This document shows positions 25,184-26,347 of a DNA stretch of 29,562 bases, piece by piece. Position numbers and translations under genes: made by a program. Source of the stretch: Nanobdellota archaeon (GTDB lineage Archaea; Nanobdellota; Nanobdellia; Pacearchaeales; UBA12030); the NCBI GenBank assembly GCA_022572525.1, contig JACZVS010000001.1:1-29562 (forward strand), written 5' to 3'. Numbering within the stretch: position 1 is the first letter of the stretch; every line of letters begins with the position of its first letter. Below the pieces are notes generated by a model. It saw only the letters and a list, made by a program, of their open reading frames with translations. It did no database searches and was not told where the DNA came from.

Positions 25184-25591
25184 ATGAAAAATAAAAGTTT
25201 TGCCTACTTTCTCTTACTAGGAATCCTAGTCTTAATCATTGACAGAATAACAAAGCTTCTTGCATTGCAAGGCCAACACGTTAAGAATTATGGCTTGCTT
25301 TTTGGTCTTTTCAGCAATCTAGAATTGAGATGGATTTTTGTTGTAATTATTGTCGCTGTCCTGATTTTCTTCATCTATGTTCTAAGCTTAAAAGAAGTTA
25401 GAAAGAGCAGCTTGCTTCAGCTTGGTCTTTTTTTAATGATAGCCGGATTGCTAGGCAATCTTATTGACAGAATTTTTTATGGATTTATTATTGACTTTGT
25501 AAAACTCTCAGTCATATCTACATTCAATGTCTCTGATATTAGCATAACAATTGGAGCCCTTCTTGTAGTATTTTACTTAGTAAAAAGATAA
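25184..25591 (+). CDS. lspA: Lipoprotein signal peptidase (signal peptidase II)
   Basis: IDRITK, VKNYG..FG, GNLIDR, IIDF and FNVSD catalytic Asp motifs. Confidence 0.9.
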   Translation: MKNKSFAYFLLLGILVLIIDRITKLLALQGQHVKNYGLLFGLFSNLELRWIFVVIIVAVLIFFIYVLSLKEVRKSSLLQLGLFLMIAGLLGNLIDRIFYGFIIDFVKLSVISTFNVSDISITIGALLVVFYLVKR

Positions 25592-25621
25592 GATTTTAAA
25601 TGCCCTTTCTTTCCTTCATAA

Positions 25622-26347
25622 ATGCCATACCCATATCCAGTACTATTTCAAATAGGGCCTTTTAGCGTATTCACTTTCGGAATTTTCATGATTATTGCTT
25701 TCCTGCTTGCTTTATGGGTTGCTCTAAAGAGAAAAGGAGAAATAGAGGAGGATCATATCTATAATGTTTCTATTATTTCTATAATTGCCGGAATTATTGG
25801 AGCGAGAATCGCTTTCATTATTTTCAATCCACAATATTTCCAAACATTTTATGACTTTATAGCAATATGGCAAGGAGGAATGAGTTTCTTTGGTGGTTTC
25901 TTTTTGGCCTTAATTGCGATTTACTTTTACACTAAGAAGAAAAAGTTAAGCTATACCGAAATCTTAGATATCTTCGCTCCTGGATTTGCACTAGGAATTG
26001 CGATCACAAGAATCGGAGGATTTATCTCGGGAGCTAATCCTGGACTGCCAACTGAATTACCATGGGCGGTCTTTGGAGCTCACCCCGCTGCCCTGTATCA
26101 TGCTTTCGCCAACTTTTTAATTTTCTTTATCTTAATTTGGGCAGGTAAATCTAAGTTTAAAGAAAAATTCGCTCCAAGTTATCTATTCATAACTTTCTTA
26201 TTGTTTTACGGAATTGAAAGATTTATCAATGATTTCTTTAGATTATACGATTCTACCGCGACAATCATAGCCGCCAGAGCTGTTCCTATCCTATTGATAT
26301 TATTTTCATTAATTCTACTTAAAAAATTACGAAAAAAGAATTCATAA
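25622..26347 (+). CDS. lgt: Prolipoprotein diacylglyceryl transferase-like protein
   Basis: P.LFQIGP, GARI, IWQGGMSF.GG, LD..APG.ALG.AI.RIG, LPWAV, HP..LY, RF..DFFR. Confidence 0.88.
   Translation: MPYPYPVLFQIGPFSVFTFGIFMIIAFLLALWVALKRKGEIEEDHIYNVSIISIIAGIIGARIAFIIFNPQYFQTFYDFIAIWQGGMSFFGGFFLALIAIYFYTKKKKLSYTEILDIFAPGFALGIAITRIGGFISGANPGLPTELPWAVFGAHPAALYHAFANFLIFFILIWAGKSKFKEKFAPSYLFITFLLFYGIERFINDFFRLYDSTATIIAARAVPILLILFSLILLKKLRKKNS

Follow-up and report, generated by a model that had tools for sequence, protein, structure and literature searches.

A conserved lspA-lgt gene pair with a divergent Lgt homolog in a Pacearchaeota-like archaeon

Background

Recent work on archaeal lipoproteins (PMC12462473; 2026 preprint 10.64898/2026.03.08.710431) takes it as given that the bacterial enzymes Lgt and Lsp lack homologs in archaea, and hence turns to the unrelated proteins AliA and AliB. 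AliA/AliB (arCOG02177) of Haloferax volcanii are the only archaeal lipoprotein lipidation components with experimental support, and their comparison with Lgt yields an HHpred probability of 29% (PMC12462473). Here we analyze a stretch of 29,562 nucleotides from a Nanobdellota archaeon (class Nanobdellia, order Pacearchaeales, family UBA12030), comprising positions 1 to 29,562 of contig JACZVS010000001.1 in assembly GCA_022572525.1 and hereafter called the window. It carries two adjacent genes, lspA and lgt, for homologs of the bacterial lipoprotein signal peptidase II and prolipoprotein diacylglyceryl transferase.

The Lgt homolog would perform the task proposed for AliA/AliB, which is to attach a thioether-linked lipid to the lipobox cysteine of archaeal secreted proteins, but it belongs to a family that is unrelated to them or at best marginally related. 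Together with counts across the phylum, the locus shows that a large archaeal lineage does hold both bacterial-type enzymes, contrary to the premise in the literature. Our literature search found no paper tying DPANN, Woesearchaeota or Pacearchaeota to Lgt or LspA, and public annotation already calls some close LspA homologs "signal peptidase II". What is new is the conservation of the pair as an operon, an LspA of minimal size, an Lgt variant that lacks the head-group and His residues essential in Escherichia coli, and joint loss of both genes at the level of the order with lipobox-like proteins persisting.

An lspA-lgt operon conserved among relatives

The pair is probably a vertically inherited, functional operon for lipobox-dependent lipidation and signal-peptide removal, with a derived Lgt, in a Pacearchaeota-like DPANN archaeon. 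The lspA gene (25184..25591, + strand) encodes a 135-residue lipoprotein signal peptidase II of peptidase family A8. The lgt homolog (25622..26347, + strand) encodes a 241-residue divergent member of the diacylglyceryl transferase family with seven transmembrane helices. Both assignments draw on Pfam and phmmer matches, residue comparisons, and AlphaFold2 models searched with Foldseek. The genes are separated by 30 nt and total 376 codons, making a compact operon that is convenient for expression. An earlier note on this DNA, made from the sequence alone, had described an adjacent, co-oriented lspA and lgt and taken them for a genuine bacterial-type pair in an archaeal genome; the open reading frames (ORFs) are as it described, and the Pfam matches, the folds and syntenic independent assemblies bear out the broader claim.

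The neighborhood recurs in loci L222/L223 (JGI and ENA assemblies, under the record name Candidatus Pacearchaeota archaeon ex4484_26), L224/L225 (ENA and GCA_018829485.1, under the record name Nanoarchaeota archaeon) and L226 (a Logan assembly). The conserved order is an AP-endonuclease-like gene, DUF357 (- strand), lspA and lgt (+ strand), glutamyl-tRNA synthetase (GluRS; + strand), and then helix-turn-helix (HTH), SufB or RtcB genes. In these loci lspA and lgt overlap by one base or lie up to 7 nt apart, and the proteins are 61-63% (Lgt) and 52-61% (LspA) identical to those of the window. DUF357 has the same placement relative to lspA-lgt in L223, L224 and L226, and GluRS is also a neighbor in L222, L224 and L226. 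The lgt and lspA matches are likewise adjacent in two more genomes of the family (G489 and G494). The lspA-lgt pair is a conserved two-gene operon in the relatives of the window's genome. The two genes are far apart in G267 and G342, which belong to the same order, and in G004 and G009, which belong to the same class.

A further locus, L115 (GCA_964361585.1), encodes P0003, the closest Lgt beyond the core group, with 51% identity to that of the window. It keeps the frame of DUF357, lgt and GluRS, with DUF357 placed relative to lgt as in the window. Between lgt and GluRS, L115 also has a 604-residue HTH_17 ORF (9336-11150, - strand) with no counterpart in the window, which is possibly an inserted element.

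A minimal LspA with an intact catalytic dyad

LspA matches Pfam PF01252 (Peptidase_A8) with 80.8 bits (E 1.4e-22; cut-off 25) and, in phmmer searches, the solved structures 6RYO, 9EMZ and 5DIR. As the earlier note had read them, both catalytic Asp motifs are intact: D95 in GNLIDR (codon 25466-25468) and D118 in FNVSD (codon 25535-25537) align with D114 and D141 of E. coli. In an alignment with ten other sequences, from E. coli, further bacteria and related archaea, the protein matches all columns conserved in at least nine of the ten, apart from two conservative changes, in which I102 replaces Val and S117 replaces Ala. The residues present are D20, K24, N35, G37, F40, G88, N92, D95, R96, D104, F114, N115, D118 and G124, and they include every position that is invariant in 67 homologs (D20, N35, G37, G88, N92, D95, R96, D104, N115, D118 and G124). 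The best non-self identity is 78%, followed by about 60%.

The AlphaFold2 model of LspA has a predicted local distance difference test score (pLDDT) of 89.3 and a predicted template modeling score (pTM) of 0.83, with lower pLDDT values of 71-75 for residues 31-50, in the region of the putative β-cradle loop. Foldseek aligns it with 6RYO, 6RYP and 5DIR at template modeling (TM) scores of 0.73-0.81 and gives no other significant match. The protein shares with the Staphylococcus aureus and Pseudomonas aeruginosa enzymes (6RYO/6RYP and 5DIR; MEROPS A8) the fold of four transmembrane helices, the dyad of GNxxDR and FNxxD, and the other invariant residues. It differs from them in length (135 residues versus 155-170), in a β-cradle loop that is shorter by about 17 residues, and in a loop between the two Asp motifs that is shorter by 4. 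Judged by its residues, the LspA of the window looks fully competent but minimal.

A divergent Lgt

The Lgt homolog matches Pfam PF01790 with 166.6 bits (E 7.8e-49; cut-off 24.9) over profile positions 1-238 of 240, and phmmer matches it to E. coli Lgt (5AZB) with an E value of 1.3e-19. Its AlphaFold2 model (pLDDT 94.2, pTM 0.90) consists of an N-terminal β-hairpin and seven long helices. The sole significant match of this model in the Protein Data Bank is again 5AZB (E 1.1e-10, TM score 0.84); the next has an E value of 0.27. The protein thus has the fold of seven transmembrane helices and the N-terminal β-hairpin arm of E. coli Lgt (5AZB/5AZC), together with GGMSF-GG in the region of arm-2 and the third transmembrane helix and the HP(S/A)xLY motif. 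However, the two proteins are only 26% identical, and the periplasmic head insertion of about 50 residues is nearly gone from the window's homolog.

Several functional residues of E. coli Lgt are kept, namely R143 (R130 in the window), Y235 (Y196), R239 (R200) and R246 (R207), as well as G104 (G91) and G154 (G141). R130 is invariant across 77 aligned homologs. Others are replaced: H103 by F90, N146 by G133, N149 by S136, E151 by A138 and E243 by D204, with F19 at the position of Y26 and H160 at that of E202. The signature reads T-RIGGFISGANP-G in place of G142-RLGNFINGELW-G154 in E. coli, with the Arg, G145 and G154 kept. [quoted passage not shown] On this alignment, the window's Lgt retains the phosphate-binding arginines but not the polar head-group site or His103. 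The earlier note had simply called the gene lgt. It is indeed an Lgt homolog, but not a canonical one, since it lacks His103, Asn146, Asn149 and Glu151, which the earlier reader had not seen.

The pattern is a property of the family. Four family relatives show F/L/Y at position 103, G/A at 146, S/A at 149, A/V at 151 and D at 243 (E. coli numbering), and Y235 is kept in four of the five family sequences, with Phe in L224. The family proteins are intact ORFs of about 241-255 residues with 50-75% identity. Even the closest Lgt pairs do not exceed 75%, and at this divergence synonymous sites are saturated. In the order relatives G267 and G342, Lgt has Y103, C146, D/C151 and D243. A natural Lgt without residues thought indispensable is directly relevant to the debate over what His103 and Glu151 contribute to catalysis and to lipid selection.

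Distribution in Nanobdellota

Among 401 sampled Nanobdellota genomes, 338 have a match to PF01790 (Lgt) and 339 to PF01252 (LspA), or about 85%. Among 14 control genomes, both families match only in the ten bacteria. The statement in the earlier note that most archaea lack Lgt and LspA is correct in general, but it does not apply to this phylum.

Within the order, 151 genomes that are each at least 70% complete were examined; these genomes are related, so that plain counts are given. In the window's own family (f1), Lgt is found in 4/4 genomes and LspA in 3/4. The corresponding numbers are 20/22 and 21/22 for family f3, 4/4 and 4/4 for both f4 and f122, and 1/1 and 1/1 for both f119 and f121. 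The counts are 1/5 and 1/5 for f123, and f2, the largest family of the order, all but lacks both proteins (4/108 and 1/108). Lgt and LspA are kept jointly and lost jointly across the families of the order.

One f2 genome (G327) has a very divergent LGT-like ORF of 344 residues (L054; G327:C6:18235-18924) with a score of 54 bits, a tree branch length of 4.5 and no accompanying LspA. This ORF may be decaying or may have been put to another use.

Phylogeny

In a scan of 1.84 billion representative proteins, P0003 was the one protein more than 42% identical to the window's Lgt. The next matches mostly have Cys at positions 146 and 151. A search of genome contigs with the single Lgt sequence gave only distant bacterial loci. 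We use the label "C-type" for Lgts with Y/F/H103, C146 and C/G/D151, which occur in many Bacteroidota and Bacillota. The earlier note had suggested phylogeny as a check. In the trees, the window's family (Shimodaira-Hasegawa-like approximate likelihood ratio test, SH-aLRT, 99) joins G267 and G342 (93), and this clade sits with bacterial C-type Lgts (85), apart from the canonical Lgts of the class. The 32 top-scoring Lgts of the class keep Y26, H103, R143, N146, N149, E151, G154, E202, Y235, R239, E243 and R246. The canonical Lgts of the class cluster with those of E. coli and with canonical Bacteroidota Lgts (SH-aLRT 99), away from the clade of the order.

The Woesearchaeota-type DPANN archaea of the same class have the same two families, which are found in about 85% of genomes of the phylum, but their Lgts keep every key residue of E. 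coli, whereas both proteins of the window's order form separate divergent clades. Their lgt and lspA genes are also non-adjacent in the genomes for which match coordinates are listed.

C-type proteins are the nearest labeled relatives of the window's Lgt in the tree and, like it, lack the polar pair N146/E151. Unlike them, the window's family also lacks the Cys residues, with G/A at 146 and A/V at 151, and has Phe, Leu or Tyr at 103. Many of the Bacteroidota and Bacillota genomes, among them G401, G409, G446 and G471, have a C-type protein as their sole LGT match, and we take this as indirect evidence that Lgt function is compatible with loss of H103, N146 and E151. By this comparison, losing His103, Asn146 and Glu151 would not by itself rule out such function. 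To our knowledge, no member of the C-type group has been characterized biochemically. In four Bacillota genomes (G446, G471, G463 and G455; loci L109, L110, L113 and L114), the only LGT match is a C-type protein (H103, C146, C151), and lspA immediately precedes its gene on the same strand, in the gene order of the window.

In the LspA tree, the proteins of the order stand apart from those of the class and are not tied to the LspAs of the Bacillota operons. LspA phylogeny was considered as a test of operon transfer and set aside, given the shortness of the protein and the lack of resolution at the deep nodes.

Candidate lipoproteins

Candidate substrates were sought with a PROSITE-type lipobox pattern applied to our own ORF calls. 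The scan found no lipobox ORF on the window's contig and eight convincing ones elsewhere in the genome, on contigs C39, C49, C50, C72, C83 (three in tandem) and C100. This agrees with the earlier note, which had seen no lipobox in the window and placed the substrates elsewhere. The lipoboxes include AIGC, LQGC, VYGC, VMGC, IYGC and IAGC, and the sequence after each of them is polar and of low complexity. The tandem ORFs of C83 (11618-12445, 12447-12899 and 13156-13545, all + strand) have near-identical signal peptides (MKSKNFIWLLVFAVFIYGCSH), and two of their products look like small blue-copper (cupredoxin-like) proteins. Halocyanin, a protein of the blue-copper type, is a classical archaeal lipoprotein.

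Cys at position +1 of the lipobox pattern has the top enrichment relative to composition (7.6), but hydrophobic residues reach 4.6-5.8 without clear separation, so that the statistic is weak. Among cupredoxin-like homologs, those of the Lgt-negative genome G249 have an N-terminal hydrophobic anchor without Cys, whereas those of the Lgt-positive genomes G004 and G342 keep the lipobox; these cases are too few to generalize. Ortholog pairs in which the Cys is lost in the Lgt-negative genome likewise number only a handful, too few for a result.

Proposed function and lipid donor

From homology, fold and residue states, we infer the following activities and order of steps. Precursors exported through the Sec pathway would have a K/R-rich N terminus, then a hydrophobic segment, and a lipobox of the form [VIL]-x-G-C, as do at least eight proteins of the genome, two of them cupredoxin-like. 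The Lgt homolog would join the glyceryl moiety of a membrane lipid to the thiol of the lipobox Cys by a thioether bond, and its Arg130 and Arg200 (R143 and R239 of E. coli) would bind the anionic glycerophospholipid. LspA, with its Asp95/Asp118 dyad, would then cleave the signal peptide right before the lipidated Cys. Because His103, Asn146, Asn149 and Glu151 are now small or hydrophobic, the head-group/acceptor site differs from that of E. coli Lgt.

A profile search of the genome produced no match for CDP-alcohol phosphatidyltransferase, UbiA prenyltransferase, PcrB/GGGP synthase, PlsC-type acyltransferase or Lit; the search controls behaved as expected, and with a genome that is 76% complete these families are counted as not found rather than absent. 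This result fits the usual view that DPANN cells take lipids from their host, and since genes for phospholipid synthesis were not found, the cell probably scavenges its donor lipid from a host. Unlike E. coli Lgt, the window's homolog thus sits in an archaeon that apparently makes no phospholipids.

Archaetidylglycerol is an archaeal ether lipid whose glycerol stereochemistry is opposite to that of bacterial phosphatidylglycerol. A more speculative proposal is that Pacearchaeota-type Lgt has been re-tooled, with the N146/N149/E151 filter and His103 replaced for a donor other than phosphatidylglycerol, such as host-derived archaetidylglycerol, and that two non-homologous lipoprotein pathways alternate in the order. 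We consider this fairly unlikely. If it were true, the enzyme would be the first of the Lgt family to build archaeol-thioether lipoproteins, and the joint loss in f2, where lipobox-like proteins nevertheless occur, would represent two non-homologous lipoprotein pathways alternating in one archaeal order. An order with and without the pair, in which both groups have lipobox-like proteins, is a natural experiment on pathway replacement and on the lipids of a lipid-scavenging symbiont.

Archaeal context of the contig

The window encodes L10e, an archaeal/eukaryotic-type GluRS, DUF357, PCMT and endonuclease V, according to Pfam. It also has two Rfam tRNA matches, at 1268-1377 (+ strand, 110 nt, 57 bits) and 5203-5314 (- strand, 112 nt, 49.9 bits), neither of which is called by ARAGORN. 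Introns are the probable reason, and they would be in keeping with an archaeal genome. The G+C content is even along the contig, at 0.32-0.42.

Relatives in the phylum, the closed genomes G004 and G009 among them, have the archaeal protein L19e and lack the bacterial protein L20, and in one of them (G338) lgt and L19e share a contig. The closest LspA homologs bear the names "Candidatus Pacearchaeota archaeon ex4484_26" and "Nanoarchaeota archaeon", and the commonest phylum in the Atlas for a protein of a sister genome is Nanobdellota.

Alternative explanations

A genome that is a 579-kb bin of 100 contigs, estimated to be 76% complete, invites the suspicion of bacterial contamination or of a chimeric join during the binning of a metagenome. 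However, estimated contamination is 0.63%, the pair lies in the middle of a 29.6-kb contig with archaeal genes on either side, at least four assemblies made independently from other samples repeat the neighborhood, and closed single-contig archaeal genomes (G004 and G009) hold both families. Because the same synteny appears in independent assemblies, this explanation is rejected as extremely improbable; a chimeric contig, which the earlier note had named as the finding that would undo its claim, is excluded on the same grounds. A real bacterial origin is a different matter. The pair might be a recent, unintegrated transfer from bacteria or a separate acquisition by the order, for instance from a Bacillota-like donor with lspA upstream of a C-type lgt. 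A recent transfer is excluded by the synteny of the operon at only about 60% protein identity and by the uniform composition of the contig. An ancient acquisition would account for the separation of the order's Lgt and LspA clades from the rest of the class in both trees, for the nesting of its Lgt with bacterial C-type Lgts (SH-aLRT 85-93), and for the four Bacillota genomes with the same gene order. In an approximately unbiased (AU) test, uniting all archaeal Lgts in one clade costs 40 log-likelihood units (p = 0.0485), but this value is borderline, and the tree had already been seen when the hypothesis was formulated. Moreover, the LspA tree gives no link to the LspAs of the Bacillota operons, and the pattern could be imitated by fast evolution in this reduced lineage. 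The order may thus have acquired the genes independently a second time, with accelerated divergence as the alternative; taken together, a bacterial transfer or separate acquisition seems to us somewhat unlikely.

Vertical inheritance of a functional operon must also be weighed against the explanation that only LspA is classical. The Lgt homolog would then be a relic kept by linkage, or would have another role, with a different donor or acceptor or as a non-catalytic partner of LspA, and lipidation would be carried out by another enzyme, for example of the AliA/AliB type. E. coli Lgt is inactivated by H103A/N/Q/R/Y and by E151A/Q, which fail to complement, and the changes tested at H103, E151, E243 and Y26 inactivate it, E243D not being among them (PMC4728403); the window has Phe and Ala at the first two positions and Gly at N146, and throughout the family the replaced positions are consistently non-polar (F/L/Y, G/A, S/A and A/V). 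LspA is also better conserved toward its nearest relatives (78%, then about 60%) than is Lgt (63%). In addition, 400 kb from each of two f2 genomes without Lgt and LspA, G249 and G281 (G249:C1 and G281:C1; loci L122-L141 and L182-L201), contain 6 and 7 lipobox-like ORFs, such as MKSFVLLAFMLVLFPAILAGCEKN, versus 4-13 in Lgt-positive relatives. The expectation that lipobox proteins are confined to genomes with Lgt and LspA thus failed to discriminate, and the lipobox scan of the proteome recommended in the earlier note, although it found eight candidates, is not proof of the pathway. Because these two genomes carry such ORFs without either gene, a non-Lgt route for lipobox proteins exists in the order, and it might also serve the window's genome. 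On the other side, Lgt is an intact ORF in the family and is present in four of four other family genomes, it retains R143, R239, R246, Y235 (in all but L224) and the Gly framework, and it is lost jointly with LspA in f2. Bacterial Lgts without H103, N146 and E151 are the sole LGT match in their genomes, and bacterial LspA requires a lipidated Cys. We regard an inactive or otherwise employed Lgt as distinctly unlikely.

Other observations also weigh against a functional, inherited operon. Both proteins score slightly below the TIGRFAM equivalog cut-offs (LspA 64.7 versus 73.95 for TIGR00077; Lgt 110.2 versus 118.9 for TIGR00544), a shortfall that first pointed to their divergence within their families. 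The LspA loop from the first transmembrane helix to NxG, which in solved structures forms the β-cradle, falls short of its E. coli counterpart by about 17 residues. One f1 genome that is 83% complete (G477) has an Lgt match and no LspA match. At L115, unrelated small ORFs occupy the lspA position, and Lgt has Met at Y235. As for expression, the read runs that contain the stretch are marine and marine-sediment metagenomes, all of them DNA.

A search for an alternative lipidation enzyme considered membrane proteins that both Lgt-negative genomes have and the Lgt-positive samples lack. The best candidate, of 254 residues and without a family (L123:1983-2744), was rejected, in that its model resembles sensor domains with seven transmembrane helices (MASE3-like) and not Lgt.

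Flanking genes and other features of the window

Upstream of lspA lies the divergent DUF357 gene (24901..25146, - strand; Pfam PF04010), at a distance of 37 nt. On reading the sequence of this region, a TATA-like, A/T-rich element, CTTTTATTTAATAAATT (25153..25169, + strand), is seen about 15-30 nt 5' of the lspA ATG. The element is a candidate archaeal promoter, from which a leaderless or short-leader lspA-lgt transcript might arise. Scans for sigma-70 promoters and terminators gave nothing interpretable for an archaeon. A TTG start of lspA at 25061 was rejected, as it overlaps the DUF357 gene and homologs have only 135-142 residues.

Convergent to lgt is an ORF of 159 residues with one hydrophobic segment and no Pfam match (26351..26830, - strand). 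A counterpart stands beside lgt in L224 (159 residues) and in L115 (137 residues). The downstream neighbor is the archaeal-type GluRS gene (26900..28579, + strand; Pfam tRNA-synt_1c, tRNA-synt_1c_C and tRNA-synt_1c_C2), and L115 has this neighbor as well.

Elsewhere in the window, a 307-residue ORF (6988-7911, + strand) has a weak match to the lytic transglycosylase family SLT (E 5e-4; 20.0 bits versus a cut-off of 21.3). If the match is real, a murein-cleaving enzyme would hint at contact with bacteria, and this would bear on the lipids seen by Lgt.

Methionyl-tRNA synthetase is apparently split. Its core, with the catalytic and anticodon-binding domains, is encoded by a 490-residue ORF (2189-3661, - strand), and the C-terminal tRNA_bind domain (EMAP/Trbp111-like) is encoded by a separate 115-residue ORF (1845-2192, - strand) that overlaps the first by 4 nt.

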